From a virus (Duplodnaviria > Caudoviricetes): a stretch of DNA of 33,999 bases. The notes under the pieces were generated by a model. It made no database searches and was not told where the DNA came from. It saw only the letters and a program-made list of their open reading frames with translations. Below, one piece after another: positions 3,108 to 32,286 of the stretch. Position numbers and translations under genes: made by a program. The stretch is from IMG/VR virus record IMGVR_UViG_3300032274_000031, positions 1 through 33,999 of that record, one strand, 5' to 3'. Position 1 is the first letter of the stretch. The number at the start of each line of letters is the position of its first letter.

Positions 3108-6004
3108 TGGCCAAAACACCAACTGCCGGACCTGCCCGGTTTAATCGTCGGTTTTTGGTTAAGGGTCGCAACCTGCCCAATCAAAGCCTGGCCGCTGTTG
3201 GCGCGAACGCTGGCCCTGTGGCGGCGACATTGCAAGCGGTGGCCGGTTACGGTCGGGCGTTGATTGAAGAGGACATAGCCGAAAAAACACAGAAGGCAAA
3301 AGACCAGGCAACGCGTGACGGCAAGGCGGCCGGTCTCAGTTCGGCGGAAGCATTTAACCCGATTGAATACCGGGAGCGCCTGACGGAAGCCGATGACGCC
3401 TATAACACGGCGATACGTGCCAGCTACTTAAGCCGGGTGGATCTATCCATTGATGAGGAAATCACGCAACACGCCCTCGCCTACCCCGATAACCCGGCGG
3501 CGTTTACGGATGCGTTCGACAAGTCAGCGGATAAGTTCATGGGCCTGGTCGATGCGGACGTGCGTCCGGACTTGGCGTTAAACATCCAATCACGCAAACA
3601 GCGCGCTTTGCTGCCGATTATGAAAAACGCCAGAACCAAGAGCGAAGCGCAGGCGAACGCGGTTTTATTGGCGGATGGTGACGCCTACCGAGATCAGGCC
3701 TTAAACGCCTGGCGCACGGACAACCCGGACGAAATAGAAGCATCAACCGCCAAATATGAGGCGGTGCTGTCGTCGCGGTCGGATCTATCGCCACAACAGA
3801 AAACCGGATTACTTCTGGATTTTGAACAGGACGTGCGCCGCCAGGTGGTGCTTGGTGGGTTTGATCAGGCAAAGGCGCAAGGGTTTGACCAGGCGCGGGC
3901 CTATGTGGAAGAGGTGGCCAATAACAGCAAAGGCATTGCGGATCCGGATGAGCGGGACCTGTTGACCGGAGAAATGGCGCAAGATCTGCGCGCCCTAGAT
4001 GCGCAACGCAAAGCCCAAACCCGGCAATTGCGCGGTGATTTGAAATCAATGATTACTGTTCTCGGCAAGGGTTACCCAGTTGGTGATCAGCTTACGAAAG
4101 CCAAGCAGGCCATAGGCGCGGTTGGGGATCCGGACCTGGCGGAAGAATTGCGCGTGGCAGAACGATTGTTTCACGTTCAGCAATCGGCACGGCAACAAAC
4201 ACCGGCCGGGCTTGAACGCGCCATAGCGGAAATGGATGAACGCCTGGGCACTCAATCGAGTGTCAGTGAAGAGCAATTAAATCAACGCGACATCGCCGGT
4301 AAAATCAAAACGGAGATGGATAAGGCCCTGGGCGTGTCAGTGCTAGAATGGGCTGGCCGTTCCAATGTCGTAACGGTTTCAGCATTGGATTTCCAAAACC
4401 CGCAATCTGTGGCGGCGCGGGTAGAAGCGGCACGGGTGGCGTCGGTATACTATGGCCGGGATGCCCTGCCCTTTCTTCCGGAAGAAATCACCATGATATC
4501 TAAAAGATATCAGGAAGCGGACGCCCTGGGTAAAACGGCCGTGCTCTCGGACCTGGCAGAACTCGACATGCCGGACGATATGCAAGCGGCCGTCCTGGAT
4601 GAACTGAACACCAAAGATCCGCATATGGCGTTTATGGTGGATCTGTCGCAGTCAGCCCCCCTCACCGCGCGATCTGTGATGCTGGGCAAAAGTATCTTGG
4701 CGGATAATAAGGGGATCCTGCCAAAGCCGGAAGATGTCGAAGGGGCGTATTTTGAGTATATGGGCGATGCCCTGCGCGCGGATCAAACCGGCACTTCACG
4801 CGCGGCTATCCAGGACGCAGCCGCGGCGCTCTATGCCCAAAAGATCCAGGGTGATGGATTTCAGGAAGACATTGAAAAATATAGTGACGCGGTGGCGGAA
4901 GTCGTGGGCACGGTCATTGAACATAATGACCAGAAAACCATCCTACCGCGCGGGCTTCCCGAAGAGATGTTTCACAACTGGGTGGATGGCCTGACGGAAG
5001 ATAATTTATTCGATATGCGCGGCGGCGTGATGGTTGGCCCGCACCGGCAAACCCCGGACGGCCTGGTGCCGATGGGTGCAAAGGAAATTAGAGAAGACGG
5101 GCGGTTCGTCACCGTGGGCGATGGGCAATATATGATCGCGGTGGAATCCAGTACCGGCATATTTGGCGATGACGAGTTGCGCTATGCGGTCGGTGAAGAT
5201 GGCCAGCCCTTTGTCCTGGATATCAACACACCGGAAGAAGATGACGCGTTAACGGCCGCGGTCGGGGATCAGGACCTGCAAGGCGGCGCGGGTGATGATC
5301 AACTGGAACCGGCGGTGGAAGTTTCCAACTTAAAACTATTGGGCGCGGCACGGAAGATCGGCCGCCACATTAAGGGAAAACTGTTTGGCCGCCAGGAAAC
5401 CCGCGCGGCACGGCGCGAACTGAGCGGTAAAGTCAATCCGGTGCCCATGCATATGACGTTACGGACGGTTTCACGCGTCTTGCACCAGGTTAACGAGGCT
5501 CGGCGCGCGGAAGGCCATGAACCGCTTGTCTCCGTGACCCTCTCCCCTGCTGATTATCCGGCCGGGTATTCGCAACCCGATATCGTGCAAGGTTTAGCGG
5601 AGGCCGTTTACCAGGGACATTTCAAAGGACCTGACGGCGGACGCACAGAAATTAATTTCGGACCGTTAGACCCGTACCTGGTTGATCGGATCAAAGGGGA
5701 GACGGGCATAGATCTGGCGGACTACCAGGACGTTATTGATACGGACGGGATCAGCCACGCCAAAAACAGCCATGGTCCCGATGCCAAACAATCGAAGGAT
5801 CAAGAGCCGGTAGGGCCGGAAGCCTTCGCCACCTATCGGCATGTGCTCAACGGCTATGACCGTTTGTCAACGCGCACGGGCACGGACGGGCGGACATTGA
5901 AATTCGAAAAGGATGTGAACGGCGTCATGGTGGTTGTTGAAAAGACCATGGATAAGCGGCGCGCGCTGGCCTTCAAAACAATGTGGATCAAAAAACGAAA
6001 ATAA
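3107..6004 (+). CDS. Large internal virion/ejection protein with C-terminal PBECR3-like (Barnase/EndoU/ColicinE5/RelE-like) nuclease domain
   Basis: 965 aa helical protein in the ejection block. The C-terminal ~120 aa (ETGIDLADYQDVIDTDGISHAKNSHG...DQEPV...LKFEK...VVVEK...LAFKTMWIKK) fits the PBECR3 pattern as I recall it. Confidence 0.7.
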   Translation: MAKTPTAGPARFNRRFLVKGRNLPNQSLAAVGANAGPVAATLQAVAGYGRALIEEDIAEKTQKAKDQATRDGKAAGLSSAEAFNPIEYRERLTEADDAYNTAIRASYLSRVDLSIDEEITQHALAYPDNPAAFTDAFDKSADKFMGLVDADVRPDLALNIQSRKQRALLPIMKNARTKSEAQANAVLLADGDAYRDQALNAWRTDNPDEIEASTAKYEAVLSSRSDLSPQQKTGLLLDFEQDVRRQVVLGGFDQAKAQGFDQARAYVEEVANNSKGIADPDERDLLTGEMAQDLRALDAQRKAQTRQLRGDLKSMITVLGKGYPVGDQLTKAKQAIGAVGDPDLAEELRVAERLFHVQQSARQQTPAGLERAIAEMDERLGTQSSVSEEQLNQRDIAGKIKTEMDKALGVSVLEWAGRSNVVTVSALDFQNPQSVAARVEAARVASVYYGRDALPFLPEEITMISKRYQEADALGKTAVLSDLAELDMPDDMQAAVLDELNTKDPHMAFMVDLSQSAPLTARSVMLGKSILADNKGILPKPEDVEGAYFEYMGDALRADQTGTSRAAIQDAAAALYAQKIQGDGFQEDIEKYSDAVAEVVGTVIEHNDQKTILPRGLPEEMFHNWVDGLTEDNLFDMRGGVMVGPHRQTPDGLVPMGAKEIREDGRFVTVGDGQYMIAVESSTGIFGDDELRYAVGEDGQPFVLDINTPEEDDALTAAVGDQDLQGGAGDDQLEPAVEVSNLKLLGAARKIGRHIKGKLFGRQETRAARRELSGKVNPVPMHMTLRTVSRVLHQVNEARRAEGHEPLVSVTLSPADYPAGYSQPDIVQGLAEAVYQGHFKGPDGGRTEINFGPLDPYLVDRIKGETGIDLADYQDVIDTDGISHAKNSHGPDAKQSKDQEPVGPEAFATYRHVLNGYDRLSTRTGTDGRTLKFEKDVNGVMVVVEKTMDKRRALAFKTMWIKKRK
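4484..4511. repeat. GATATC-like array with 11-bp period (intragenic)
   Basis: GAAATC(4484)-N5-GATATC(4495)-N5-GATATC(4506). Confidence 0.7.
5144..5172. repeat. 22-bp palindromic element with adjacent GANTC (intragenic)
   Basis: GAATC-CA-GTACCGGCATATTTGGCGATGA; unit at 5151-5172. Confidence 0.75.
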
Positions 6005-6008
6005 AGTG

Positions 6009-6060
6009 GCGGGTGCCATGGCTGCCAAGGCCGCCACGGAGACGCACGTAGCGCACCCGC
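6009..6060 (+). other. Intergenic stem-loop directly after the nuclease-domain gene
   Basis: GCGGGTGC (6009-6016) pairs with GCACCCGC (6053-6060) and encloses an inner TGGC..GCC-AA-GGC..GCCA hairpin; no U-tract follows. Confidence 0.55.
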
Positions 6061-6081
6061 TCAAGAGGTTTATAGAACGAA

Positions 6082-8073
6082 ATGCGGATTAATACGAGAG
6101 ATTTTCAAACATCAGCGGCGCTAATGCCTTTGCAAGGCGCGCCGACTGGCTTTGTCGAGAATACAAAAGCGGCATTCTCGGCCGTTTCACATAATGATCG
6201 TTCAATATCTGGATGGGGCAACCTGAAATCCGCCTATGACGATTACCTAGCGGACGTGGAAAAACAAACAGGCAAACAATTTGATAATCCAATGCTAGCG
6301 ACAAGTGCGCCGGTTCTGGGCATTGAAAGCCTGGGCGATAGTGGCCGGGCGATACAGGCGGCACGGCAAAAGCTTGATGCGGACCTGGTAAACTTGCATG
6401 AAACGGGCGGCGGATTTGATTTAAAGCGTGGCCAGGATCTAGAGCAAGCAATCAGAAACCAGGCGCGCGAATTAGAGACGGCCGCGGAAGATGTCGGAAA
6501 CCGGGCAGACGGGCTGGGAACGCTCGGCCAATTCACCGGGTCAATGGGTGCGGCGTTTACGGATCCGCCATTGATGGCCACTCTTTTTGCTGGTGCACCG
6601 GCCGCGGCGGGTTTTCTGCGAACCGCTATCATTGAAGGCGCTATAGGTGCGACAACGGAAGCGGCCATACAACCGACCGTGCAAGCCTACCGCCAGGAAC
6701 TCGGGTTGGAATACGGTTTGGATCAGGCGGCGCAAAATATCGCATTGGGTGCTGCTGGTGGGGCTGCGTTAAGTCCCATTGCGAAGCTTGCAGGCATGGG
6801 AACAACGAAACTCCTGGATGTTTGGCGCAAAACCCGAAAACAACCCAGCCAGGCAGAGCAAGACGCGGCGGCGATGCTACAACGCCAGGAAGAAATGATT
6901 CCGGCCGGTGTAGATCCGGAAGTGGCGGCCGCGAACCTGGATAAGGCCATGGCGGCCGGTAATGAAGGGCGGCCGTTGCGTGATGATGAACTGGTATCTG
7001 TAGATCCTGCACCGGCAGATGTGGCGGTGACACCGGCGGCAACAGCGGATCCGGCGGTGCGTGCCGGTAGCGCGCGGGATCCGCTTGGTGTTGTGGATGA
7101 TACGGCACCTTGGCGGTTGCCGCGGCGGACCGTTGAGCGGGTGCGTAACGTCTCCCCTGCCCTGGATGATGGCCAGAAAGAAACCATCAAACAACTGGCG
7201 CATGCTATCCAGTGGGCAAACACCACAAATGCCGAAAGCAGGCTTTCGGGTGAATTGTCAGATTTCTTAAAACAGGCAGAAAGCACCCCGATAACCCCGT
7301 TTCTGGACGCGTTGAGGGGTAAAGGGCCGGGCATTGGTGCCGGAGCTGTACGAGAGAAGCCGTTAATTCACGCGATCAAGGCCAAAGGGGGCTTACATCC
7401 GGAAGCGCTGGACCGGGCGGAATTGGAGCATATCGGGATCACGCCAAAGACCGTTCCGGGTTTCTTTTCGCGGAAATCAGAACATTACAGCCTGGATAGT
7501 CTGGGTGAAGTCCTGGGCGATAGCGGATTGTTTCCGGAAGTCGTTGGCGGCGGACGGATCGCACCGGATGAACTGGTGGAAAGCCTGCGCGGTGAAATGG
7601 CCGGGCAACCGCGGCGCGATCTTATGGATGATGAGGCGCTGGCCAATCAACAACTTTTAGATGACTTGGACCAGGCCATAAACGAAGCCGGAATTGATTT
7701 ATCCCTACCCGATTGGGAAATACAAAATCAGTTAGATCATTTTGCCGTTGCTGCGCGTGAGGCGTTGCAGCCGTTGGGCCGCGAATATGGCCAGGCGGTT
7801 GACCCACAAGGCAGGGAAGCGGCGGCGGTGCTTTCCGATCAGGACATGGACCGGGCCGCGGAAATACACGGGGATCTCTACGCCCGCAACCTGGCGGAAC
7901 TGCATGAGCATATGGCCGCCAATGATGATTTCGAAGTGGTGATTGATTTTGAGATGAACCAGGCCACCAAACAAATAGAGCCGGTCAAGATCCGGGCGCG
8001 GGATCTCTTAAATCAACTGGATATGGAAGAAGAAACCATAGAAGCATTTGCCATATGTGCGGGGGTTAAATAA
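6082..8073 (+). CDS. Internal virion/ejection protein
   Basis: 663 aa, with a Gly/Ala hydrophobic segment (GQFTGSMGAAFTDP...EGAIGATTEAAIQP) typical of podovirus DNA-transfer proteins; synteny. Confidence 0.7.
   Translation: MRINTRDFQTSAALMPLQGAPTGFVENTKAAFSAVSHNDRSISGWGNLKSAYDDYLADVEKQTGKQFDNPMLATSAPVLGIESLGDSGRAIQAARQKLDADLVNLHETGGGFDLKRGQDLEQAIRNQARELETAAEDVGNRADGLGTLGQFTGSMGAAFTDPPLMATLFAGAPAAAGFLRTAIIEGAIGATTEAAIQPTVQAYRQELGLEYGLDQAAQNIALGAAGGAALSPIAKLAGMGTTKLLDVWRKTRKQPSQAEQDAAAMLQRQEEMIPAGVDPEVAAANLDKAMAAGNEGRPLRDDELVSVDPAPADVAVTPAATADPAVRAGSARDPLGVVDDTAPWRLPRRTVERVRNVSPALDDGQKETIKQLAHAIQWANTTNAESRLSGELSDFLKQAESTPITPFLDALRGKGPGIGAGAVREKPLIHAIKAKGGLHPEALDRAELEHIGITPKTVPGFFSRKSEHYSLDSLGEVLGDSGLFPEVVGGGRIAPDELVESLRGEMAGQPRRDLMDDEALANQQLLDDLDQAINEAGIDLSLPDWEIQNQLDHFAVAAREALQPLGREYGQAVDPQGREAAAVLSDQDMDRAAEIHGDLYARNLAELHEHMAANDDFEVVIDFEMNQATKQIEPVKIRARDLLNQLDMEEETIEAFAICAGVK
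7009..7060. repeat. Two 22-bp palindromic elements in tandem (in frame)
   Basis: GCACCGGCAGATGTGGCGGTGA (7009) and GCAACAGCGGATCCGGCGGTGC (7039); they encode the linker APADVAV..ATADPAV. Confidence 0.75.
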
Positions 8074-11486: not shown

Positions 11487-11861
11487 ATGCGACTATTAGA
11501 AGAAAGAATTCGGGTGTCGGTGATTGTTGGCGCGTTGGTTCTGTTGGCGGCGTGCGTTCCTGCCGCGGTGGGTATCGGGGTTGGTGTCAGCCTTGTGCAA
11601 GCCAGTCCGACCGTTAACCAGGCCGCGCACAAGTTGGCGGACCGTGTGGCAGAACGGATTATCCAATCAAATGGCCGGGTGGATAAGATCAGGGAAACCG
11701 TGTGTGCCCTGCCCGCTCCTGTTCGGTTGTTAGTTCGTGCCCGCGTCCTGGAACGATCTATAGGCCGGATCAATACGGCAAAGATTTGTGACACACCTGA
11801 AGCACCAGCGGATCCGGCGGTGCTCGATAGTGTGAAGGAGCCGAAAACGGATCCCGATTAA
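11487..11861 (+). CDS. Putative lipoprotein, spanin-like
   Basis: Hydrophobic leader ending in the lipobox-like LLAAC, a second hydrophobic stretch and two further Cys; follows the endolysin. Confidence 0.45.
   Translation: MRLLEERIRVSVIVGALVLLAACVPAAVGIGVGVSLVQASPTVNQAAHKLADRVAERIIQSNGRVDKIRETVCALPAPVRLLVRARVLERSIGRINTAKICDTPEAPADPAVLDSVKEPKTDPD
11802..11823. repeat. 22-bp palindromic element (in frame)
   Basis: GCACCAGCGGATCCGGCGGTGC, encoding APADPAV. Confidence 0.75.
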
Positions 11862-12583
11862 TGTTTTCCGTTCAAACGTTGGCCAGGTGTTGCGCGGCGG
11901 AATATCAACCGCCAAGCCGTGAAACCTGGCGCACCGTCTGGGGCGACGATCTCATTTCATATAATGAGGTCGCCGTGGGCGGTCATCATTGCACGGTTCT
12001 TTTGCTCTGGGTGCCAGAACATCGAAAAAAGGTGTCCTTGGTTGTCAACCGGGGCACTGAGCGGGAATTCTCCGATATCGTCACGGACATGCGGACATAT
12101 CCCTGGTACTCGAAAGACTTTGGTATTCACCATCGGGGTTTTGGCCTGGCCGCGCGTGAACTATGGGCGGCCGGGCTTGATGATCTTCTAGGAACGGAGA
12201 CGCTGCACAAACGCGATATCATATTAACCGGTCATTCGCTGGGCGGTGCGATGGCGTTATTTCAGGCGGCGTTGATGCTCAAGGCAAACCAGCGGCCGGT
12301 CTCTGTGGTGACGTTCGGCGCGCCGCGGGTTGGGTTGCCCTGGTTAGGGGTGGCAGATCTACAAGCCCGGTTGCAAAATGAAATCATCCTTCAATATGTT
12401 AATGGGGATGATATCGTTTCACGCGTACCGAGCCTGTTACCCGGTTGGCGGCATGGGGCGTCTGAGAAAAGTTTTTTATATTCGCGGCCTCATGCGTTCC
12501 ATAATCATAGAATCTCTGAGTATGTGGCGGCGCTGGGTGACGAAGGGCGGATATCTGGAAGACATCTAATAGATGTCAATTAG
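11861..12583 (+). CDS. Lipase class 3 (alpha/beta hydrolase)
   Basis: NRGT oxyanion motif, HRGF, nucleophile elbow TGHSLGG, TFGAPRVG, catalytic Asp in DDIVSRVP and His in NHRISEY. Confidence 0.92.
   Translation: MFSVQTLARCCAAEYQPPSRETWRTVWGDDLISYNEVAVGGHHCTVLLLWVPEHRKKVSLVVNRGTEREFSDIVTDMRTYPWYSKDFGIHHRGFGLAARELWAAGLDDLLGTETLHKRDIILTGHSLGGAMALFQAALMLKANQRPVSVVTFGAPRVGLPWLGVADLQARLQNEIILQYVNGDDIVSRVPSLLPGWRHGASEKSFLYSRPHAFHNHRISEYVAALGDEGRISGRHLIDVN
12550..12577. repeat. GATATC-like array with 11-bp period
   Basis: GATATC(12550), GACATC(12561), GATGTC(12572). Confidence 0.7.
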
Positions 12584-12885
12584 AGCCGTTTAACCTGCGT
12601 AGATAAATAGGGTTTTTCCGCAAGGATCTTCCGGGGGTCGTTCCATGATTTGCGACCCCCTCTTTTTTTAATATCTTCATCACGCCAAATCGAATAAAGG
12701 CGGCAACATGCCCCGTACAGTTTTAGAGCGGTGCCAAGTTTGCGGTCATTACGAAGCGCCATAAACAAATCGTAGAGTTCAGATCCGCGACTGGCGCGCC
12801 TGGTGTTGTAGGATCGGCTGCACTTGGTGTTGCAAAACGTTCCTTTGCGTTCGTGGGTATCGCCACATTCGAGACAGGTTGCCAT
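12580..12885 (-). CDS. Small basic Zn-ribbon protein of unknown function
   Basis: CLECG...FCNTKC four-Cys motif; start overlaps the MTase stop (TAATG), so it is the last gene of the par operon. Confidence 0.75.
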   Translation of the reverse strand: MATCLECGDTHERKGTFCNTKCSRSYNTRRASRGSELYDLFMALRNDRKLGTALKLYGACCRLYSIWRDEDIKKRGGRKSWNDPRKILAEKPYLSTQVKRL

Positions 12886-12937
12886 TACCGCCGGTCCTCC
12901 TGGTGCGAGAGTCCAGCACCGCCAGATATGGCGGGAT
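12885..12937. repeat. Pair of 22-bp palindromic elements flanking GAGTC at the 3' end of the MTase gene
   Basis: TTACCGCCGGTCCTCCTGGTGC-GA-GAGTC-CA-GCACCGCCAGATATGGCGGGAT. Confidence 0.8.
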
Positions 12938-13598
12938 CGGCCGCAATGGCGGATAAAATAGCCTGGCGCTCAAGTGCTGGCATTTCTTTTAAGTTGGTGG
13001 CCCATCTGTTGGCCTTCTTCCGGATGTTCTCACGCTCTCTATAGTTATCACCTATGTATTGATAATCATGCAGGGCAACCGGCGGTGCGTAATTCATCCA
13101 CAAAGTTTCCGTGGCCATGCCGCCACGGGTCGCGGCTTCATATTCGATGGTTCGGAAATCAGCCAGGGCACGGTCATAAAGATCTGATCTATACCCGGAT
13201 ATCATCACCATGCAGGGCAGGCGACAAATCAGGCCTAGCAATTGGTTGTGGTCTGCTAACGACAATTCGCAGGCGTAAAGATCGCGGTTTTGCACCCGGC
13301 GGGTTTCCATAACATAAGGCGGATCAAAATAGACGAATTCGCGACCGGTGAACTTATAGGATCCGAGCACGTCCAGGGCATCGCCATGAATGATGGTGGC
13401 CTGGTCTTTAAATTCGAAATCCAGAGCGGCGGCCTGGGGTCCGTGTTTTTCAATTAGAAGAGAAGAGGGGGCCGGGCGCATTTTGCGGAAAATGGCCGCA
13501 CCACCCGCAAAAGCTTCGATATATGTTTCATGCGGTGGGATCTGATTAATGATTGTCTGATACACACCAGCACCCGATTTACCCCCTGGATATCCCAT
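12885..13598 (-). CDS. Orphan DNA N6-adenine methyltransferase (Dam/D12-like) with C-terminal extension
   Basis: YPGGK N-terminus, SAM-binding YIEAFAGGAA, catalytic VYFDPPY, MISGY, ExLWMNY. Start moved to 13598 (GAGGT RBS). No cognate endonuclease seen. Confidence 0.92.
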   Translation of the reverse strand: MGYPGGKSGAGVYQTIINQIPPHETYIEAFAGGAAIFRKMRPAPSSLLIEKHGPQAAALDFEFKDQATIIHGDALDVLGSYKFTGREFVYFDPPYVMETRRVQNRDLYACELSLADHNQLLGLICRLPCMVMISGYRSDLYDRALADFRTIEYEAATRGGMATETLWMNYAPPVALHDYQYIGDNYRERENIRKKANRWATNLKEMPALERQAILSAIAADPAISGGAGLSHQEDRR

Positions 13599-13602
13599 TG
13601 GA

Positions 13603-13857
13603 TTAACCTCCGTCGCGGTCCAGTTTTTCGAGAATAGCTTCAATAATAAATGTGGTTACGGTCTTTGTCGGCACCAGTGATTTACCGTGTCGTTGGGTTC
13701 TGTCGTACAGATCCGGCGGTAGGCGCAGGGGGAACTGTTTGATTTGCGGCCTGGCCGGTGGGGTGTCGGCAGGCGTGGACCCCCCTTTATTGATCAGCTC
13801 GGTTATCTGCTGTTCGCTGGGCTGCACGGCTTTCGGTTTCTTTGGTAGTTTTGTCAT
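13603..13857 (-). CDS. Ribbon-helix-helix partition protein (type Ib ParB/ParG-like)
   Basis: 84 aa. Unstructured N-tail (ELINKGGS) followed by beta-alpha-alpha (KQFPLRLPPDLYDR...TVTTFIIEAILEKL); directly downstream of parA. Confidence 0.8.
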   Translation of the reverse strand: MTKLPKKPKAVQPSEQQITELINKGGSTPADTPPARPQIKQFPLRLPPDLYDRTQRHGKSLVPTKTVTTFIIEAILEKLDRDGG

Positions 13858-13890
13858 GGGTGTTTTCCGTTCATCGATATATAGCAAAAA

Positions 13891-13918
13891 GAAATCAATT
13901 TGATATCAAACTGAGTTC
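13891..13918. repeat. GATATC-like array with 11-bp period between parA and its RHH partner (parS/operator candidate)
   Basis: GAAATC(13891), GATATC(13902), GAGTTC(13913). Confidence 0.7.
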
Positions 13919-13920
13919 AT

Positions 13921-14571
13921 TCAAAAGATGGCCTTATATACGGCCTTCATTTCGGCGCGGGCCTTGGTATCGACGGGTTTAAACTCATTAATCCCAAGAC
14001 CGGCGCTTTGCGCTTTGCGGATGGCGGCGCGGGTCACAATCCGCGGCTTCATCAGTGAAAACTCTATCCCGGTTTCGTAGGTGTCCGGATCCATCAAGGC
14101 GCTGGTGGCGTCTTCTGCGTCCTGGCCGCGGGCCGGGCACTGGTTTAGGACGGCGACGGCTTTTAACTTTGGGTTCGCCTGGCGCATTTCGGACAAGATG
14201 GTATTGAGCGTTACCGTTGCCCAAACATCAAAGGTGGCAGGCATAACAGGAATTAAGAACAAATCCGCTATGGCCATTGCTGCGCGTTGGCTGGTTGTGT
14301 CACGGCCGCCAACGTCAATAATCACGTCATCATATTTAGGCGCTTGTTTCAAAATCTCAGAACGCACGAACTCACCATTTAATTGAATGGTCGTTGGCGC
14401 TGGCAGGGCAGGGGCCAAGGTTGCCCGCAATGCCATGAAGTCCAATGCGCTGGCTTGTAGATCTGCATCAACAAACAAAACGTCTTTTCGAAGCGCGCGC
14501 ATGCACGCCAGATTTACAGCAAGGGTCGATTTGCCCACACCGCCTTTAATGCCACCAATAGCTAGTATCAT
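13921..14571 (-). CDS. parA: ParA Walker-type partition ATPase (short, type Ib)
   Basis: Deviant Walker A KGGVGKST, VDADLQAS, Walker B IIDVGG, DLFLIPV; 216 aa with no N-terminal HTH. Confidence 0.95.
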   Translation of the reverse strand: MILAIGGIKGGVGKSTLAVNLACMRALRKDVLFVDADLQASALDFMALRATLAPALPAPTTIQLNGEFVRSEILKQAPKYDDVIIDVGGRDTTSQRAAMAIADLFLIPVMPATFDVWATVTLNTILSEMRQANPKLKAVAVLNQCPARGQDAEDATSALMDPDTYETGIEFSLMKPRIVTRAAIRKAQSAGLGINEFKPVDTKARAEMKAVYKAIF

Positions 14572-14600
14572 TGATTAGGTCCAATCTTCATAATTTCCCA

Positions 14601-14639
14601 GATATCAAAAAGATTTCTTTTTGATGTCGGCACGATACG
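14601..14639. promoter_or_regulatory. GATATC-like array with 11-bp period upstream of parA (operator/centromere candidate)
   Basis: GATATC-AAAAA-GATTTC-TTTTT-GATGTC-GGCAC-GATACG, 30 bp upstream of the parA ATG. Confidence 0.75.
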
Positions 14640-14892
14640 CGGATTAAATTGGACCTGTCAATAGGGCGCACACCAAAAGCGGGTAAAGGTCAAATTTCAC
14701 ACCTTTGTAGAGTAGGGGAGGGCGTCCGCGTTATCGGCTCAATTTTCCATAATTAGATATTATCCGTTTTTCAGGCACTTTGCGGCGGGTTTCTGCGGAT
14801 CAAAAAAATGGCGTTTCGGGCACGAAATGAAAAAAGCCTGGAAAAACTATATATGGTAGGTCGATGGATTTTTGCCTGTGGAAAACGCCGGA

Positions 14893-14922
14893 TTGACTTG
14901 GCCTATCGCGGACGGGTAGGAT
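14893..14922 (+). promoter_or_regulatory. Putative repA promoter overlapped by an iteron (autorepression)
   Basis: TTGACT-N18-TAGGAT with TTGGCCTATCGCGGAC at 14898-14913. Confidence 0.7.
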
Positions 14923-14953
14923 ACCACCAAATCTAGCCACCTGGGGGTGTATT

Positions 14954-16042
14954 ATGTCTGCTGGAACACAAGTAGATCTATTTTTGGACAGTCTGGTTGA
15001 CGCGCCTGTAAAGGATGACCAGAACTTAATGGAATTTCCGTTTTTCTCTCTGACTAAACAACCACGGCATGATGTGCTTGAATATGATGACGGCACAGTC
15101 AAGATCCGGGTTGAGCCAGGCACCGCGGGAATGGCGACGATTTGGGACAAGGATATTCTCATATATGTGTGTTCGTTGATTAATGAGCGGATCGAGCGCG
15201 GGTTGGATGTTTCGCAAACGGTAAGCTTCCATGTTTACGATTTTCTTAAGGTCACCGGGCGGCCGATAGGCAAAGAACATTATGAGCGGTTCGTTGATAG
15301 TTTGAAGCGCCTGGACGCCACGCGGATCCGGACCACCATTAGAACCGGTGACGAGGGCAATATTAGAACCTCGTTTGGCTGGCTGGAAAACTGGAAGGTT
15401 GAGACCAAGGACGTACCAGGGCGGCCGGAACCAGTCATGTCAGCGGTAACGCTTAAAGTCAGTGAATGGATGTTTCGGGCGATTGTGAAGGATCGCAAGG
15501 TGCTGACAATCAATTCAGACTACTTCCAGCTTAAAATGGGATTAGAGCGGCGCATATACGAACTTGCCCGTAAGCATGTGGGGCGTCAGCCTGAATGGTG
15601 GGTGGGCCTGGTCAAGCTGAAGGCCAAATGTGGATCCGTCCGCGAAATCCGGAAGTTCAAGGCCGAACTGGTAAAGATCATTGATCGCGATAGCCTGCCG
15701 GATTTTCAAATGGAACTTGTGGCGCAAACCGGTGATATGACCTACCGGACAAAGGATGGGCGCGAAATGGTGCGGTTTCGGCCGCGCGTGACCAGGCCAA
15801 GCTTAATAGATGACCTGGCGAAAAAGGCGGAACCTAAGAAAAAGCCGAGCGGTCCCGTGGAGCCGCCTAAATGCACCACAAGCGCCTATGAGATGGCGAG
15901 AGAGATGGCACCCGGCTACGACATCTATGCAATAGAGAAGAAATGGCAGGATGTGACGGTGGCAAACAACATGGTTTTAGAGCATCCAGACAAAGCGTTT
16001 CTTGGGTTTGTCCGCCTGTTTGTCGAAAAAAATCAAATTTAA
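14954..16042 (+). CDS. repA: Plasmid replication initiator RepA (RPA family)
   Basis: KDDQNLMEFPFFSLTK, GMATIWDKDILIY, DFLKVTGR and YFQL..GLERRIYELARKH.GRQ motifs; divergent from parA; iterons on both sides. Confidence 0.93.
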   Translation: MSAGTQVDLFLDSLVDAPVKDDQNLMEFPFFSLTKQPRHDVLEYDDGTVKIRVEPGTAGMATIWDKDILIYVCSLINERIERGLDVSQTVSFHVYDFLKVTGRPIGKEHYERFVDSLKRLDATRIRTTIRTGDEGNIRTSFGWLENWKVETKDVPGRPEPVMSAVTLKVSEWMFRAIVKDRKVLTINSDYFQLKMGLERRIYELARKHVGRQPEWWVGLVKLKAKCGSVREIRKFKAELVKIIDRDSLPDFQMELVAQTGDMTYRTKDGREMVRFRPRVTRPSLIDDLAKKAEPKKKPSGPVEPPKCTTSAYEMAREMAPGYDIYAIEKKWQDVTVANNMVLEHPDKAFLGFVRLFVEKNQI

Positions 16043-17962: not shown

Positions 17963-18724
17963 ATGGGTAATCGCCTCAACCTTTTGTTTGTTCAATATTG
18001 TGCAAAAGATCGATTGGCGGAAGAAATCGGGCTGACACCGGAAGCCCGTGGACTCTATGCGCTGACAACAGACTACTTGTTGGCACGCGGAAACCAATTG
18101 CGGCTGGATGCCCTCAAGCGTATGTCGGGTTTTAAGACGCGTGCCGGATTCACCAAAGCTTGGGAGGAATTGCAGGCGGCGCGCGGGGATTTGGGCGGGC
18201 CGTTGGTGATGCTGGAACGGGACGAGGCGGGCGACCTGGTGCAAGTCGAGTGGGTTTCAAAGGCCTTGGAAAAAGCCGGGGCACTGCATCAAAGCCATAG
18301 CGAACGCGGCAAGGCGGGGGCGGCGGCAAAACGCGATAAGCAGCCACCAGCCGGAGATAATGTCGCGACCGCGCCGACCTTTGAAACTTTTTGGGAGATC
18401 GGCCTGTGGCGGGCAAACAAGGACTTGGCGGCCGGAGTATGGAACACCGTGATATCTAGTGATGCGAAGGAGGCGGCGGCGGCAATCAGCGGTTTAAAAC
18501 AGTATTTGGCGGTGGCTCCGACAACACAGGAAAAGCGCCGCCTTGACCGCCCGGACTTTTTTTTAAGGCAACGGATCTATCAATTAGGCCCAGCGGAAAT
18601 GATTGAGCGATGGGCGACACCGGAACGGATGGCGGAAGAATTCTGCCGGGATTATTTAACGCGGATGACGAGAACGGCACCCGCCAAACCGAAAAGGAAA
18701 AAGCGACATGGCACGAGTAACTAA
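17963..18724 (+). CDS. DUF1376/YdaU-like protein, putative lytic replication initiator
   Basis: N-terminal QY.AKD.LAE..GLTPEARGLY..........SERGKAGAAAKR pattern plus a FETFW C-terminal domain. Start at ATG 17963 after GGGGTGG. Confidence 0.65.
   Translation: MGNRLNLLFVQYCAKDRLAEEIGLTPEARGLYALTTDYLLARGNQLRLDALKRMSGFKTRAGFTKAWEELQAARGDLGGPLVMLERDEAGDLVQVEWVSKALEKAGALHQSHSERGKAGAAAKRDKQPPAGDNVATAPTFETFWEIGLWRANKDLAAGVWNTVISSDAKEAAAAISGLKQYLAVAPTTQEKRRLDRPDFFLRQRIYQLGPAEMIERWATPERMAEEFCRDYLTRMTRTAPAKPKRKKRHGTSN
18444..18465. repeat. Degenerate 22-bp palindromic element
   Basis: ACACCGTGATATCTAGTGATGC, about 16/22 match to the consensus. Confidence 0.45.
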
Positions 18725-19553: not shown

Positions 19554-19760
19554 ATGGCAGATAATCAACATGATATATTTTTGGGACCGGCGGCGGATCC
19601 TAAGCTGGTCGGGGCAATTACAGAACTGAAGCGGGAATTATCGATGCGTAAGCACGTCTACCCGCGCTCGATAGAGCGGGGCAAGTTGACCAGGGAGCAA
19701 GCGGCGCAACGGATCATCCGGGTTGAACATGCCATAGAATTTTTGGAGAAATTGGCATGA
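19554..19760 (+). CDS. Hypothetical phage protein
   Basis: 68 aa, tightly coupled to its neighbours; ELKRELSMRKHVYPR...GKLT pattern. Confidence 0.75.
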   Translation: MADNQHDIFLGPAADPKLVGAITELKRELSMRKHVYPRSIERGKLTREQAAQRIIRVEHAIEFLEKLA

Positions 19761-20020
19761 AAGCGGCGCGCAAACCTTCGGACGTGGCAGGCGTAGCCGG
19801 GGATCGGTTGCGGAACTTTGTGGAACGGATCGAGCGGCTAAACGAAGAAAAGGAGGCTATTGCGGCGGATACTAAAGAGGTCTACGCGGAAGCGCAGGGC
19901 GTAGGTTTTGATATCAAGATCATGCGGGAAATTATCAAGTTGCGTAAAATGGAAGATGATGACCGGGCGGAAATGGAAGAAGTGTTAGGCGTTTACAAGC
20001 GCGCGCTGGGGATGGCGTGA
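19757..20020 (+). CDS. gapR: GapR/DUF2312 nucleoid-associated DNA-binding protein
   Basis: AGDRLRNFVERIERLNEEKEAIAADTKEVYAEAQGVGFDIKIMREIIKLRK...YKRALGM is the DUF2312 signature. Confidence 0.95.
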   Translation: MKAARKPSDVAGVAGDRLRNFVERIERLNEEKEAIAADTKEVYAEAQGVGFDIKIMREIIKLRKMEDDDRAEMEEVLGVYKRALGMA

Positions 20021-20021: not shown

Positions 20022-20204
20022 ATGACTACAGCATCGCCAGATATGGCGGTGGGTGATTCCGCGCCCGGTTTGCGGCTCAAGCTGGAACGGCTGGGTGACC
20101 AGGCATTGAACGCCCCGGACCCGCTGGAAGCGGACGCGCTCATAAGCCAGATGCAGGAAATTTCAGAACGGTTGCACATGTTGGAATTTAGGAAAGAGGG
20201 ATGA
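20022..20204 (+). CDS. Small hypothetical protein whose N-terminus is encoded by the palindromic element
   Basis: 60 aa ORF starting 1 nt after the gapR stop. Confidence 0.5.
   Translation: MTTASPDMAVGDSAPGLRLKLERLGDQALNAPDPLEADALISQMQEISERLHMLEFRKEG
20031..20059. repeat. 22-bp palindromic element with adjacent GANTC
   Basis: GCATCGCCAGATATGGCGGTGG-GT-GATTC. Confidence 0.8.
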
Positions 20205-23797: not shown

Positions 23798-25192
23798 ATG
23801 GCTGATATTATCATTGAAGATTTAAGCCCGCGGGCACAGGTCAATGGCAACGGCGTGCAAACGGTTTTCAATTATCAGTTTCCCATTTTCAGCGCCGCGG
23901 ATCTTAAGGTGTACGTAGACGACACACTTAAAACGCTGGATGTGGATTATACGGTTTCGGGTGTGCTTGTGGCTGCGGGTGGATCTATCACGTTCACCAC
24001 GGCACCGGCGGATCTAACGGTGGTGACGATTATCAGAGATTTGCCGATTGAGCGGACCTCTGATTTCCAGCAAACCGGGGATTTCAACGCCACTACAATC
24101 AATACAGATCTGGATAAACTGATTGCGATGGTGCAACAACTCGAGGCGGCACTTGCCCGCGTTATGGCCCTGGCGACGACTGACACAAACCCCGGCATGA
24201 CCTTGCCCGTAAGCACGGATCGGGCAAATAAAATCATGGCGTTTGATGCCAATGGCGCGCCGGTTGCTTCAACAAAAACCCTGACGGCGATTGAAGATGA
24301 AGCGGCGGCGGCAACAGCGGCGGCGGCGACCTCGGCCGGAGAAGCGGCGGCCAGTGCTGTATTGGCTGCATCGGAAGCGGTGGCATCCGCGGCATCCGCG
24401 GCGGCGGCCTTGGCGTCTCAGGTGGCGGCGGCTCTGAGTGAGGCGAACGCGGCGACAAGTGCTATCGCGTCGGCGGCGTCGGCGGCAAGCGGATTTCTTA
24501 AAGGGTTGGTCAATGCAACGGGAGTGATAAGCCCAAATCTCAGCACGGATGACGGATCGCTTTATGTGTGCGATACCTCGGGCGGCGCGGTAACGGTGAC
24601 CTTGCCTGAAATCGGGACATCGGAAGGCGTGCGATATGGGTTTTACAACAAAAGCGGTTCGAATGCGGTAACGCTGAACAGAAGCGGCACCGATACAATA
24701 AACGGCGGCACAACGCTTTCACTGAATATCGATACGGAATTTTTGATCATTATCGCAGATGACAATTCGCCGGATAATTGGATCACGTTAGCCGGTAGTT
24801 CAATCATTGCGGGCGAGGGGATCTTAAAGGTTGGGGAGACACTGAGCGTAGATCGTGGTTTCGTTGGCCAGGTTCCCCAGAACAGCCAATCAGCGGACTA
24901 TACCTGTGTGTTGGCGGATGCAGGAAAACATATTTTGCACCCGAGCGCAGATACAACAGCCAGGACATTTACAATTCCGGCAAATGCATCGGTGGCTTAT
25001 CCGGTGGGTGCGGCGTTAACATTTGTCAATCAGAACGGCGCGGGCGTTGTGACCCTGGCGATAACTTCGGATACCTTGCGCTGGGCGGGTGAGGGCACAA
25101 CCGGTTCCCGGACGTTGGCGGCAAACGCCATGGTAACGGCGCTTAAGATCGGGCCAACGGAATGGATGATTTCAGGCTCGGGGATGACGTGA
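23798..25192 (+). CDS. Tail fibre protein (T7 gp17-like N-terminal anchor)
   Basis: GNGVQTVFNYQFPIF..ADLKVY...DYTVSG...GGSITF..AP...IIRD...DF...N.DLD N-domain, Ala/Ser shaft, DTSGGAVTVTLP and beta-rich C-domains. Confidence 0.9.
   Translation: MADIIIEDLSPRAQVNGNGVQTVFNYQFPIFSAADLKVYVDDTLKTLDVDYTVSGVLVAAGGSITFTTAPADLTVVTIIRDLPIERTSDFQQTGDFNATTINTDLDKLIAMVQQLEAALARVMALATTDTNPGMTLPVSTDRANKIMAFDANGAPVASTKTLTAIEDEAAAATAAAATSAGEAAASAVLAASEAVASAASAAAALASQVAAALSEANAATSAIASAASAASGFLKGLVNATGVISPNLSTDDGSLYVCDTSGGAVTVTLPEIGTSEGVRYGFYNKSGSNAVTLNRSGTDTINGGTTLSLNIDTEFLIIIADDNSPDNWITLAGSSIIAGEGILKVGETLSVDRGFVGQVPQNSQSADYTCVLADAGKHILHPSADTTARTFTIPANASVAYPVGAALTFVNQNGAGVVTLAITSDTLRWAGEGTTGSRTLAANAMVTALKIGPTEWMISGSGMT
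24002..24023. repeat. Degenerate 22-bp palindromic element
   Basis: GCACCGGCGGATCTAACGGTGG; the first 14 nt are identical to the unit at 28869. Confidence 0.45.
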
Positions 25193-27255: not shown

Positions 27256-27292
27256 TTTCATATAGATTTATAAAAGATATCTTATTGATATC
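27254..27292. repeat. GATATC-like array with 11-bp period between terS and terL
   Basis: GATTTC(27254), GATTTA(27265), GATATC(27276), GATATC(27287). Confidence 0.75.
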
Positions 27293-27310
27293 AGAAAACA
27301 GGACCAAAAA

Positions 27311-28829: not shown

Positions 28830-28837
28830 GAGATCCG

Positions 28838-28921
28838 GCACCGACACAAACGGCGGTAAAGACCTTCAGCACCGGCGGATCTGGTGGTGCGCGAATCCAG
28901 CACCGCCAGATACACCGATAG
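28838..28921. repeat. Three 22-bp palindromic elements with 31-bp period, intergenic after terL
   Basis: GCACCGACACAAACGGCGGTAA-N9-GCACCGGCGGATCTGGTGGTGC-GC-GAATC-CA-GCACCGCCAGATACACCGATAG. Confidence 0.85.
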
Positions 28922-28944
28922 GATCCAACAAAAGGGAAAAAGAC

Positions 28945-29373: not shown

Positions 29374-29385
29374 GGAGTATTACCT

Positions 29386-29586
29386 GTGAAATCCAGCGCA
29401 CCAGCACCCGTACAGCCTGACACATCCAAACAGGATGAATTAGCAGAAGCCAACCTAAAAGAGAAAGACCGGTTAGAGAAGAAAAACCGGGCAACCAGGC
29501 GCAATCAAAGATCGCGAGGACGTGGCGTAGCGCGTGGGTTTCTTGATTTGCCAAGTTCGGGCGCACAACAGCAAACCATCGGTTAA
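29386..29586 (+). CDS. Small basic protein preceding the portal (virion assembly)
   Basis: GGGAG RBS, GTG start; Pro-rich then Arg-rich, ending in IG; typical position in podoviruses. Confidence 0.65.
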   Translation: MKSSAPAPVQPDTSKQDELAEANLKEKDRLEKKNRATRRNQRSRGRGVARGFLDLPSSGAQQQTIG

Positions 29587-29588
29587 TT

Positions 29589-31172
29589 ATGGCAGATGCG
29601 AATGCAAAGACCGGCGGTTATGCAACGCCAGAAATGAAAATGTACCATCGGGCAAAGCAAGAGTTAGCGCCCTGGGAACAAGTGTTGAAAGAAGCGCACG
29701 AAATGGCGCTTCCAGCCTATAATCCGCAAGTCTATGGGGAAGACAAAGCTACAACGGATCCTATGGCGGCGGTTAATGGCCGGTTTGATGTAACGGCACC
29801 CGGTGCGGTGGACGAAAAAACCAATCGGTTATCCGGATCTTTGTTTCCGATGGCGGAAAGCTGGGCGGATTTCATGCCGATGCAACCCAGCCCAACCACG
29901 GAAAAGAATAACAAACAGGTGGATCAACAAATCCTAGAAATCTCATCCAAGTTTCATGATGCGATTGAGGTGTCAAATTTCCATAGCGAGATATCGGCGG
30001 CGCTCGATGATGTCCAGGTGAGTTTCGGCTCCTTGTTTATTCATGAGGGCACGCACATGAACCCGTTGCATTGTGAGGCGGTGCCGTCGCGCTCGATCAT
30101 TCCGGTGGAAAGTAAAAAAGACGGCACGATCAAAACCAATTTCCGTGAACGTGATATTGCTATCAGTGAAATAAAGGATTTGTGGCCGGATGCGAAGTTA
30201 TCAGATCCGGACCTCGCGCGGATGCTTAAGGACGATCCTTACAAAGAATTGACTTTGGTTGAATGCACCATGTACCGGCCAGACATGGAATATAAATACG
30301 ATTACAAAGTGTTTACGCAGAAAGAAAAGCTAATCGTGGATCGGTCACAAAACAGCGTGCCCGGCGTTATGTTCCGGATGAAAAAGGCGGCCGGTCAAAC
30401 CATGGGCTTTGGTCCTGTGTTGCGCGCCTTGCCAAAGATCCGGGTTGCTAACAAGGTGCGTGAACTGCTTTTGGCCAATGCGGGCCTGGCCATTATTGGC
30501 CTGTGGCAGGTTGAAAACGATGGCGTGTTGGATCCGGAAGGGCTGCGCCTGGTGCCGGGAACACTCATTCCGATTGCGGAAGGATCGAGCGGTATACGGC
30601 CTATCGCAACAAACATGGATCATAATTTGACCTGGGCCATGTTAACGGATCTGGAAGATGAAATTCGCCGGATCATATTAGGACCATCTTTACCCCCGGC
30701 GGAAGACAGCGGCCGGACGGCGTTTGAATTGGGATTGCGCGATAGCGACCGGCGGGAATTTGAATTGCCCAGCTCACTGCGGTTGCTGAGTGAAGCGCAT
30801 ATGCAAATCACGGCGCGGGTGTTGCATATCCTTTCCAGCGAACGGATGCGGGGATCTCCGTATTATATTGAAACCCTAGAGATTGACGGTGAAGAGATCA
30901 AAATGGTTCCAATGTCGCCCCTGGTGCGACTAAAGAAACGGATGGAAGCGGATGAGCAATTGCGCGCGGTTGTCAGCGCTTCGCAAGTGGCACCGGACCG
31001 GGCGCATGTGATTGTTAAGCGCGATAACATTTTGCGTAAATTCCTCACGGATAACGGCGTAGCTGGTGATGACCTTTATTCGGAAGAAGAAACCAAAGCC
31101 TTTGACGAACAAGCAGCCCAACAGCAAGCGGCATTAGCGGCCGCGCAATCACAACAACAGACAGGAGCTTAA
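29589..31172 (+). CDS. Portal (head-tail connector, T7 gp8-like)
   Basis: 527 aa; FDVTA, SNFHSEI...D...FG, GFGPVLRALP, RTAFE and SPL motifs. Confidence 0.93.
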   Translation: MADANAKTGGYATPEMKMYHRAKQELAPWEQVLKEAHEMALPAYNPQVYGEDKATTDPMAAVNGRFDVTAPGAVDEKTNRLSGSLFPMAESWADFMPMQPSPTTEKNNKQVDQQILEISSKFHDAIEVSNFHSEISAALDDVQVSFGSLFIHEGTHMNPLHCEAVPSRSIIPVESKKDGTIKTNFRERDIAISEIKDLWPDAKLSDPDLARMLKDDPYKELTLVECTMYRPDMEYKYDYKVFTQKEKLIVDRSQNSVPGVMFRMKKAAGQTMGFGPVLRALPKIRVANKVRELLLANAGLAIIGLWQVENDGVLDPEGLRLVPGTLIPIAEGSSGIRPIATNMDHNLTWAMLTDLEDEIRRIILGPSLPPAEDSGRTAFELGLRDSDRREFELPSSLRLLSEAHMQITARVLHILSSERMRGSPYYIETLEIDGEEIKMVPMSPLVRLKKRMEADEQLRAVVSASQVAPDRAHVIVKRDNILRKFLTDNGVAGDDLYSEEETKAFDEQAAQQQAALAAAQSQQQTGA

Positions 31173-31175
31173 TCG

Positions 31176-32087
31176 ATGCCCAGACTTATGGACGATTTGG
31201 GACAACAGGGAAACAGCGGACAAGATCAACCTGGTGCAACGGGTGCAGCGGGTGCAACGGATCCAGCGGCGGCGGCTGCGGCGGCCGCGGGTGGTGCGCC
31301 TGCGGGTTCGCCAGGTGGTCAAGGTCGCCAGGGTGGCGATGGCGAAGCGGACCCATGGACGATTGATTTTAATGGTGAGCAATTGGCCATCCCTGAGAAT
31401 TTCAGGGGTGATGAACCGGGAAGTGTCAATTCAGGCGCGGCGCTTAAGTCAGCTATGGATCTGACACGGCTTAACCGGGAGCTGAACGAAAGCCGCCAGG
31501 TTCCGGATGAGTACGAAATCAAGTTATCCGATGACCTGGCACCAAAGATCGAGGCGATGGGCGGGATTGATATCGAAAATCCGTTGCTGGTCAACTATCA
31601 GAAGATGGCCAAGGAAAAAGGGTTTACCCAGGAGCAATTCCAAAGCGGTATTGATCTCTATTTCGCGGATCAACTGGATAACGGAGATAGCCGAAGCGAA
31701 GAACAAATTCAGAGCGAAAACAACAGCGCAATTATTGCGGCAATACCCAACTGGGAGGCGGGCCGGAAAGGCGAATTAACCGCGTTTATGAATTCGGCCT
31801 TCGGTCAGTATTTCGCTAATGAGGATCCGGCGGCGGGCAAGGTTGATCCGGTGGCCACGGAATTGCGTTTAATGAATGAAACACCGGAAGGTGTGATTAT
31901 CCTTAATCGGTTGTTTGAGATGACGGGGGAAAAGTCGATCCCTGGCGCTGGCCATGGGGATGGTTCTGGCTATGTCACACATGCGGACCTGGAAAAACTG
32001 CAAGCCAGCGAAGCCTACCGTAAAGGAGATCCGGCGGCGCAAAAGAAAGCCGAGGAAATGGCCAAGGCCTTAACCCGCGGCAAATAG
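31176..32087 (+). CDS. Capsid scaffolding protein
   Basis: Acidic; IPENF, VPDEYE, AKEKGFTQEQF and C-terminal AYRKGDP motifs; lies between portal and capsid. Confidence 0.8.
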   Translation: MPRLMDDLGQQGNSGQDQPGATGAAGATDPAAAAAAAAGGAPAGSPGGQGRQGGDGEADPWTIDFNGEQLAIPENFRGDEPGSVNSGAALKSAMDLTRLNRELNESRQVPDEYEIKLSDDLAPKIEAMGGIDIENPLLVNYQKMAKEKGFTQEQFQSGIDLYFADQLDNGDSRSEEQIQSENNSAIIAAIPNWEAGRKGELTAFMNSAFGQYFANEDPAAGKVDPVATELRLMNETPEGVIILNRLFEMTGEKSIPGAGHGDGSGYVTHADLEKLQASEAYRKGDPAAQKKAEEMAKALTRGK

Positions 32088-32095
32088 ATAACCAG

Positions 32096-32123
32096 TTTCG
32101 GTGTCCCCAGAACACCGAAAAAA
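32096..32123. terminator. Hairpin after the scaffold gene; the U-tract is on the minus strand
   Basis: TTTCGGTGT-CCCCAGA-ACACCGAAA-AAA. Confidence 0.5.
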
Positions 32124-32207
32124 GGGGCACTCCCTAGGGTGCCTAAAACGGGGTGACGTGTTTTGATTGGTCCAGATCTTCCCACGTTGCCCCGTTTATT
32201 TTCTACA

Positions 32208-32286
32208 GCATCGCCAAATCTGGCGGTGTTGGATTCGGGCACCAGCATATCCGACGATACTCGGGCACCAGCATATTTGGCGGTGC
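32208..32286. repeat. Three 22-bp palindromic elements upstream of the capsid promoter
   Basis: GCATCGCCAAATCTGGCGGTGT-TG-GATTC-GG-GCACCAGCATATCCGACGATAC-TCGG-GCACCAGCATATTTGGCGGTGC. Confidence 0.85.

Follow-up and report, generated by a model that had tools for sequence, protein, structure and literature searches.

What does a long palindrome do that recurs around the genome of a phage-plasmid carrying an orphan methyltransferase (MTase) gene? We addressed this question in the IMG/VR record IMGVR_UViG_3300032274_000031, all 33,999 nucleotides of which were analyzed (here, the window). The window is a circular phage-plasmid, with a terminal repeat and RepA, ParA and GapR alongside T7-like portal, scaffold and tail-fibre domains, and it carries 16 units of a 22-bp palindrome together with a Dam-like gene of the Upf31 family, known from IncP-1β plasmids. 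An earlier note on this DNA had proposed that the MTase, or a zinc-ribbon protein coupled to it, binds the palindrome and methylates, shields or senses an adenine at a fixed distance from it. What we found is a rule that is strong at the level of sequence comparison: the fourth base outside each arm of the palindrome (+4) tends to be the very base that host enzymes methylate.

All 16 units that had been listed were present, at 10 loci (Table 1). A symmetric matrix built from them gave scores of 15.3 to 29.3 bits (12.9 to 28.6 after leaving each unit out in turn), and the next best position in the window reached 11.0. In 100 dinucleotide shuffles, positions scoring at least 12.9 bits averaged 0.28 and never exceeded 2, versus 16 in the window; a 22.5-bit match turned up in one shuffle. 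The literal consensus fits loosely, with at most three mismatches in 6 of the 16 units. The three pairs arranged as unit-NN-GANTC-NN-unit and the two single units with a GANTC flank were also real. Reading outward, the 32 flanks of the window had A at +4 in 17 cases, C in 9 cases and G in 6 cases. Four units had been named as exceptions to an adenine at this position; those at 13378 and 24002 stand, but those at 7039 (CCGG) and 32265 (GGCC) have there a C that belongs to a methylation site.

When flanks were pooled over elements, +4 was A or C in 322 of 392. These are the two bases that amino-methyltransferases modify. The +4 geometry is real and general when tested for enrichment, with the correction that the probed base is A or C, not adenine alone. 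The first catalogue of methylation sites was written after about 100 sites had been seen, and new data were then used for testing. In the clustered set, it placed a methylated base at +4 in 153 of 292 flanks, with 5 to 15% at offsets 0 to 12, while a column-permutation null that kept the position-specific composition gave 58.6 +/- 6.0 (maximum of 76), that is, a 2.6-fold excess. The held-out data followed the same rule, with 19/32 flanks in register in two IncP-1 plasmids (permutation, 5.6), 19/26 in multi-unit or gene-bearing viral loci (6.3) and 28/42 at new sites in four whole viral records (11.4), against only 2 of 64 flanks of chance singleton matches without the gene. Under a strict catalogue, restricted to positions given in the supplement rows of Blow et al. 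2016 that we drew on (PMC4752239) plus GATC and GANTC, +4 was the methylated base in 55% of 338 flanks from 26 elements, versus 3 to 9% at other offsets. It exceeded the other offsets in 23 of these 26 hand-picked multi-unit elements, with none in L083, L084 and L097. An extended catalogue, with registers added after the data had been seen, gave 180/292 and was excluded from the primary evidence.

The host sites found in the flanks include GANTC, GATC, CTGCAG, TCGA, GGCC, CCGG and GGWCC. GANTC as the flanking site, as first described, is real in the window but not general, since the flanks draw on many host sites, a library whose GANTC version is the one seen in two GANTC-poor phage-plasmids. 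Within most sites it is the cognate base that occupies +4. Among the 392 flanks this was so for CTGCAG (A5 in 26 versus C1 or C4 in 0), GGCC (C3 in 43 versus C4 in 1), GGWCC (C4 in 14 versus C5 in 0) and GANTC (A2 in 18 versus C5 in 1), as well as for CTCGAG (A5, 7), GTCGAC (A5, 6) and GGTACC (A4, 6), whose other A or C positions were found there 0 to 1 times. GATC and CCGG flanks occupy both of their known registers. Less clean were TCGA (26 versus 6) and CCWGG, AGCT split 8 to 8, and GCNGC had no preference. The gaps between tandem units often set the marks of both strands at +4, with 4 bp (TGCA, TCGA), 5 bp (GGWCC), 6 bp (TGGCCA, CGGCCG) or 8 and 9 bp (NN-GANTC-NN), and other gaps exist too. 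A register on the cut site was rejected, given that known cut positions spread from 0/+1 to +5/+6 while the methylated base stays constant.

The in-register sites also stand out against a background from which they have been removed. GANTC occurs 17 times in the window versus about 130 expected from base composition, and 5 of the 17 are in register (0.015 expected). In the sister phage-plasmid G006, which is syntenic with 30 to 60% protein identity (RepA 51%, capsid 52%, MTase 58%), we counted 15 units, and of 12 GANTC sites, 9 are in register. Several unit positions differ between the two genomes while the register was retained, which argues that it was rebuilt more than once. In IncP-1 plasmids, the registered hexamers are purged (observed/expected of about 0.1 to 0.4 for most), and the survivors in three of these plasmids lie largely in register, with 5/5, 5/8 and 4/6 for PstI and 2/2, 2/2 and 3/6 for XhoI (5/5 and 2/2 being the values of L267). 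GANTC depletion served as a proxy for the host taxon because the named alphaproteobacterial plasmids had no strong units. By this measure, GANTC flanks made up 10/126 in GANTC-poor loci versus 1/224 elsewhere, all ten from the window and its relative G006. In Alphaproteobacteria, GANTC is the mark of an orphan MTase, so that protection from cutting explains these flanks poorly.

Table 1 Features of the window (33,999 nucleotides)
Feature	Position	Strand	Remarks
Terminal repeat, 23 bp	1-23 and 33977-33999		
In-register GANTC	5144..5148		
Unit in 965-aa virion gene	5151..5172		left +4 = A of GANTC
Unit	7009..7030		+4 = A of GATC (left), inner C of CCGG (right)
Unit	7039..7060		both +4 bases = a C of CCGG; separated by 8 bp from 7009 unit
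Unit	11802..11823		+4 = A of CTTCAG (left), A of TCGA (right)
Upf31-family gene, 237 aa	12885..13598	-	Dam-like catalytic core without target-recognition domain, plus basic helical C-terminal domain
Weak unit spanning MTase stop and Zn-ribbon start	12885..12906		right +4 = A of GANTC
In-register GANTC common to two units	12909..12913		both adenines at +4
Unit, MTase 3' tail	12916..12937		+4 = A of GANTC (left), C of GGCC (right)
Conserved basic C-terminal helices, ca. residues 176-216	12951..13073	-	R189 and R198 in 120/120, W199 in 116/120
DPPY catalytic motif, residues 92-95	13314..13325	-	in 119/120 homologues
Unit overlapping codons of SAM-binding GDA motif	13378..13399		both +4 bases = G (exception); CCWGG adjoins each arm
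RepA (PF10134) and ParA	13603-16042		
Weak unit	18444..18465		+4 = A (left), G (right); no catalogued site
GapR	19757-20020		
Unit	20031..20052		+4 = A of CTRYAG (left), A of GANTC (right)
In-register GANTC	20055..20059		
Unit in tail-fibre gene	24002..24023		no catalogued site; recoded versus sister phage, length unchanged
Unit 3' of terL	28838..28859		left +4 = A of GATC
Unit	28869..28890		+4 = A of CTGAAG (left), A of GANTC (right)
In-register GANTC common to two units	28893..28897		
Unit	28900..28921		+4 = A of GANTC (left), C of GATC (right)
Unit 5' of major capsid gene	32208..32229		+4 = A of CTRYAG (left), A of GANTC (right)
In-register GANTC common to two units	32232..32236		
Unit	32239..32260		left +4 = A of GANTC
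Unit	32265..32286		right +4 = C of GGCC

The MTase gene of the window is 50 to 52% identical to IncP-1β upf31.0 across 87 to 92% of the query and about 40% identical to genes of P2-like phages. A total of 1139 homologues were found, and in the best 120 of them, S-adenosylmethionine (SAM)-binding motif I was kept in 117 and DPPY in 119. The protein matches PF02086 (E value of 1.8e-7) and scores 28.9 bits against TIGR00571, under the cut-off of 114.85. It shares the catalytic fold, motif order and DPPY of the Dam/D12 alpha class (EcoDam, DpnM, T4Dam), and its structure model (predicted local distance difference test [pLDDT], 85.9) aligned with DpnM over 149 residues (Z of 16.4; rmsd [root mean square deviation] of 3.0). 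However, query residues 69 to 82 span DpnM residues 81 to 184, so that about 12 residues stand where DpnM has ca. 100 residues of target-recognition domain; across homologues, the spacing from motif I to DPPY has a median of 64 amino acids. With this domain absent while the SAM/DPPY core is intact, Upf31 appears from its sequence to have kept the pocket and lost the usual means of reading a short site, and the probed base would lie outside the recognized sequence. What it has instead is a basic helical C-terminal domain (predicted helices at 187-205 and 208-219), barely covered by fold searches. This tail, remarked on earlier as an extra of this gene, is real but conserved family-wide, as well as DPPY and motif I among the best 120 homologues, and it probably forms the dimer and palindrome-binding module. 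In the window, units sit inside the gene and at its 3' end, none lies between 13400 and 18443 where its own promoter would be, and the gene follows parA and a small open reading frame on the same strand. A unit ca. 200 bases into the gene, as at 13378-13399 here, is also found in L009, L014, L084, L096, L163 and L167-L170.

Does the palindrome go with the gene? We compared loci of at least 8 kb with a full-length upf31 homologue (n = 96) or with other D12 genes (n = 54). A strong unit was nearby in 36/96 of the former versus 3/54 of the latter, and at least two strong units were found in 23/96 versus 0/54. For 74 of 110 distinct homologues (control, 22%), a relaxed operator was located no more than 70 bases upstream, often abutting TTGACA, and in many homologues units adjoin the gene's own -35 box. 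Scanning for the motif first retrieved many P2-like prophages with the gene next to it. In the sequences surveyed, the palindrome thus accompanies upf31 in IncP-1 plasmids, in temperate phages (P2-like and others) and in two phage-plasmids of alphaproteobacterial type. The co-occurrence of palindrome and MTase that had been put forward as a check is found in unrelated elements, as a link that is not absolute. A search of the 26 whole motif-first viral records without a nearby gene found no intact full-length homologue; three of them (G016, G019 and G020) were near complete and had weak partial matches only. Units can therefore outlast the gene. Two P2-like prophage records, G014 and G015 (L220, L222), have units and a short upf31 remnant, namely, a C-terminal piece in both and also an N-terminal piece in G015, echoing deletions selected in pBP136.

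These data bear on the idea that the palindrome is a host repeat of the repetitive extragenic palindromic (REP) type, or a structured RNA, unrelated to the gene, which we consider scarcely credible. In five bacterial genomes, none of them the host's, the 20-bp core with one mismatch had 35 to 87 matches per genome versus 5 to 16 for a reversed control; the listed matches, however, were scattered GC-rich near-matches, and a repeat of this kind would not gather at upf31 loci or adjoin the gene's -35 box. A search of the window against Rfam gave only two matches, far under gathering scores (E values of 3.9 and 4.4), and no family. Insertion footprints are also disfavoured, given that there is no target duplication, the left and right flanks are unlike, and the tail-fibre unit is an equal-length recoding.

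Other candidates for a general binder were rejected. Among 375 loci, the zinc-ribbon and the ribbon-helix-helix (RHH)-like proteins matched only the sister phage, Xre matched none and GapR one unrelated locus. Of the earlier proposal, the landing-pad idea fits the absence of a target-recognition domain, while the zinc-ribbon protein drops out as a general partner.

Two kinds of locus deserve separate mention. Multi-copy chromosomal elements of up to ca. 2.3 to 2.5 kb carry an upf31-like gene, with copies 88 to 100% identical (L111-L113, L118/L123/L145, L124/L125, L126/L128, L127/L141, L129-L131/L140 and L148/L149). Many have a variant palindrome upstream with TTGACA abutting, and in L130 the gene lies immediately 5' of an IS66 transposase; these would be insertion sequences with a possible methylation-probing passenger. 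G007 (L368) and L186 are unit-rich phages with C5 cytosine methyltransferase genes of their own, and cytosine sites abound in their flanks.

The gene and its repeat have a history in IncP-1β plasmids. The window matrix recovered 14 sites in four clusters on pB8 (0 in pB8 shuffles), so the window palindrome is the IncP-1β repeat, whose four inverted-repeat clusters are credited to Thorsted 1998 and called unexplained in Elg et al. 2025 (PMC11997246). The statement that no described system has this layout thus holds only in part: repeats and gene were already known, but the +4 register onto host-methylated bases is, as far as we found, unpublished, and it is not noted in the portion of Elg et al. 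2025 on which we draw (PMC11997246). In the largely openly accessible literature, we likewise found no report of the fixed-offset register, of the loss of the recognition domain or of the spread to phages, phage-plasmids and insertion sequences. The window copy shares the repeat and the C-terminal domain with its W198/W199 residue with the IncP-1β protein; it differs in residing on a phage-plasmid, in having no unit at its own promoter and in giving no KorB match, with ParA but neither KorB nor ParB matched among the 39 window proteins scanned with Pfam (a subset of the open reading frames). According to the same study, the pBP136/R751 Upf31 represses its own promoter from 4.76 to 0.09 units and requires the C-terminal domain to do so, as demonstrated for the R751-pBP136 hybrid protein only (PMC11997246). 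It had a fitness cost only in combination with the plasmid, and its authors regard it as a KorB-binding regulator, probably no methylase and nearly confined to IncP-1β (PMC11997246).

On a plain-operator reading, Upf31 would be a repressor or anti-repressor (the KorB partner of the Elg model), and the flanks would reflect nothing but binding preference, codon use or tandem duplication. The autorepression of one homologue and the upstream operators speak for it, and some GATATC flanks are due to the constraint of coding GDA. Yet no single preference would align sites of 4, 5 and 6 bp, starting at offsets from 0 to +4, on their methylated base, the signal is absent from chance matches, and the 39 window proteins scanned include ParA without a KorB or ParB match. 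We consider a plain operator very unlikely.

The reading that we favor, to which we give about an even chance, is that an Upf31 dimer grips the palindrome, flips the base at +4 and senses host methylation. That it grips and flips is suggested by the preference for A or C, by a pocket retained while the recognition domain was lost and by the C-terminal domain being required in the published work. The 22-bp palindrome would be the binding site of the dimer, read by the C-terminal helices, and each catalytic domain would probe +4, flipped out on each 3' flank, whatever its sequence context. A host-made mark there would weaken binding, as with SAM-bound BrxX, such that the occupancy of a unit would report whether, and since when, the current host has methylated the element. 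Broad-host-range elements, with their library of common sites, would have some unit responding in most hosts. For the phage studied here, CcrM with its GANTC site would act as the reporter, and units in the late, lysis and partition operons would thereby be linked either to the host cell cycle or to establishment in the host. The host is likely alphaproteobacterial, judging from the top RepA matches, Kordiimonas MTase matches, GapR and GANTC depletion. Units lie in late genes, 3' of terL, 5' of the capsid gene, close to lysis genes and where the partition operon ends, a placement that would suit a role in silencing or in timing the prophage state; we found no sigma-70 promoter at the capsid-proximal cluster. 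Sensing is somewhat favored over methylating or shielding because of the alignment on the host enzyme's own target base, the excess far above neutral and the use of GANTC.

Several observations weigh against sensing. A strong unit is near only 36 of the 96 full-length homologues, and no unit of at least 17 bits was found in 7 of 9 gene-bearing plasmids (from Sphingobium, Sphingomonas, Lichenicola, two Acinetobacter, Vibrio and Methylomonas). GANTC flanks are absent from three other GANTC-poor loci (L003, L096 and L194), and the host of the phage-plasmid is itself deduced from sequence. GATATC is registered on its second A (9 versus 0 among the 392 flanks), while both of its rows in Blow et al. 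2016 mark the first (PMC4752239). The upf31 promoter is ca. 50-fold repressed (PMC11997246) with flanks that Escherichia coli K-12 should leave unmethylated, which shows binding to unmethylated DNA but no switch. Finally, an intact active site normally means catalysis, and a bias to the transferred strand is what a protective writer predicts. In-register sites had this bias in three IncP-1 plasmids (17/18, 12/12 and 16/17 versus 7, 5 and 6; 45/47 versus 18/47 overall), with the transferred strand inferred from RP4 (PMC7314908); the three are homologous and count as one observation, and the window has no strand bias of in-register sites.

These last points lead to the alternative that Upf31 is an active amino-methyltransferase that would methylate any A or C at +4, which we regard as possible, if somewhat less probable than sensing. 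It would copy host marks onto chosen sites, which would arrive protected or hemimethylated in the next host, where they could be loading points or decoys for host MTases; alternatively, selected GANTC sites would be kept fully methylated independently of the cell cycle. Besides the intact motifs and the strand bias, such a writer would account for A or C at +4 even where there is no host site, e.g., in upf31 promoters the C that pairs with the G of TTGACA, and for hexamers that are purged elsewhere persisting beside units. No methylation by the pBP136 protein was seen in GATC digests or by SMRT (single-molecule real-time) sequencing, which speaks for sensing, but the latter used an expression vector in ER2796 without a repeat-bearing plasmid, as well as a motif finder (PMC11997246), so that methylation next to the repeats remains compatible with this negative, a further point against sensing. 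On the other hand, protection would account for the sites being tolerated and not for their 2.6-fold excess relative to the permutation null, any base that blocks cutting would give protection while the cognate base alone is used, and GANTC would not need protection in a CcrM host. Moreover, m6A in CTGCAG and similar marks should draw Mrr/McrBC in E. coli K-12. The transcriptome table of Elg et al. gives log2 fold changes of +0.36 for sulA and -0.41 for umuD, with four other SOS genes absent from the table (PMC11997246); from these two rows, there is no SOS induction that would support a writer.

The same geometry and register data would fit a shield or bistable switch, in which bound Upf31 flips and hides the +4 base and excludes the host MTase, as in Pap/agn43, with heritable ON and OFF states in place of a graded sensor. 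The strong steady-state repression by Upf31 agrees with it (PMC11997246). Nevertheless, we saw no sign of two states in the data and consider it improbable, and it overlaps with sensing, from which only the kinetics would set it apart. Leaving the choice between them aside, Upf31 proteins are quite probably widespread methylome probes of mobile DNA, with a pocket that a dimeric module would park over a fixed base beside a 22-bp operator, by which a phage, plasmid or insertion sequence would read (or forge) the host epigenetic signature at chosen loci, here the cell-cycle mark of CcrM.

In order to put this into perspective, we compared it with known systems. Host methylation gates protein binding at regulatory DNA in OxyR/agn43, Lrp/pap, GcrA/CcrM and the IS10 transposase. 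In those cases, the site of one MTase lies within the footprint of a protein without an MTase fold, whereas the Upf31 pocket at a fixed offset would serve many marks. M.SsoII, M.EcoRII and M.CfrBI are self-repressing restriction-modification MTases that bind an inverted repeat over their own promoter; these enzymes retain a short target site, come with a cognate nuclease and are not known to have dispersed operators with foreign-site flanks. The precedent for an intact MTase acting as a reader is BrxX (PglX) of BREX, which has an intact pocket, shows no methylation on its own and has a much weaker hold on methylated sites, in the portion of the preprint we draw on (bioRxiv 10.1101/2024.04.12.589305). 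It reads its own system's mark within a short site, for defence, while Upf31 would read the marks of other enzymes beside a 22-bp site. Gene and repeat being known from IncP-1β, the novelty is the mechanism, and we could match none of the reader, writer and shield versions to a described system. For repeats described together with upf31 in 1998 and still called unexplained in 2025 (PMC11997246), the +4 register is a precise and testable account, and it shows how the sole published methylation test could have missed activity. If Upf31 is a reader, mobile DNA would sense host identity, restriction-modification status or cell-cycle stage via a single protein; if a writer, it would be a naturally occurring methyltransferase that a 22-bp site directs to whichever A or C lies at a fixed offset. 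In either case, a tool for site-addressed methylation or methylation reporting could result.

Some other features of the window were observed. The big virion protein (3107-6004) has a PBECR3 domain at its end, and a class 3 lipase (11861-12583) comes after the putative lysis genes. A second repeat family consists of two GATATC-like hexamers 11 bp apart (4495, 10058, 13891, 14601, 19508/19519 and 27276), which flank parA, among other places, and are a candidate operator or centromere of the RHH-like or Xre protein; the pattern had 0 matches in G006. Six direct repeats around repA (14899, 16056, 16259, 16282, 16304 and 16327) are likely iterons.

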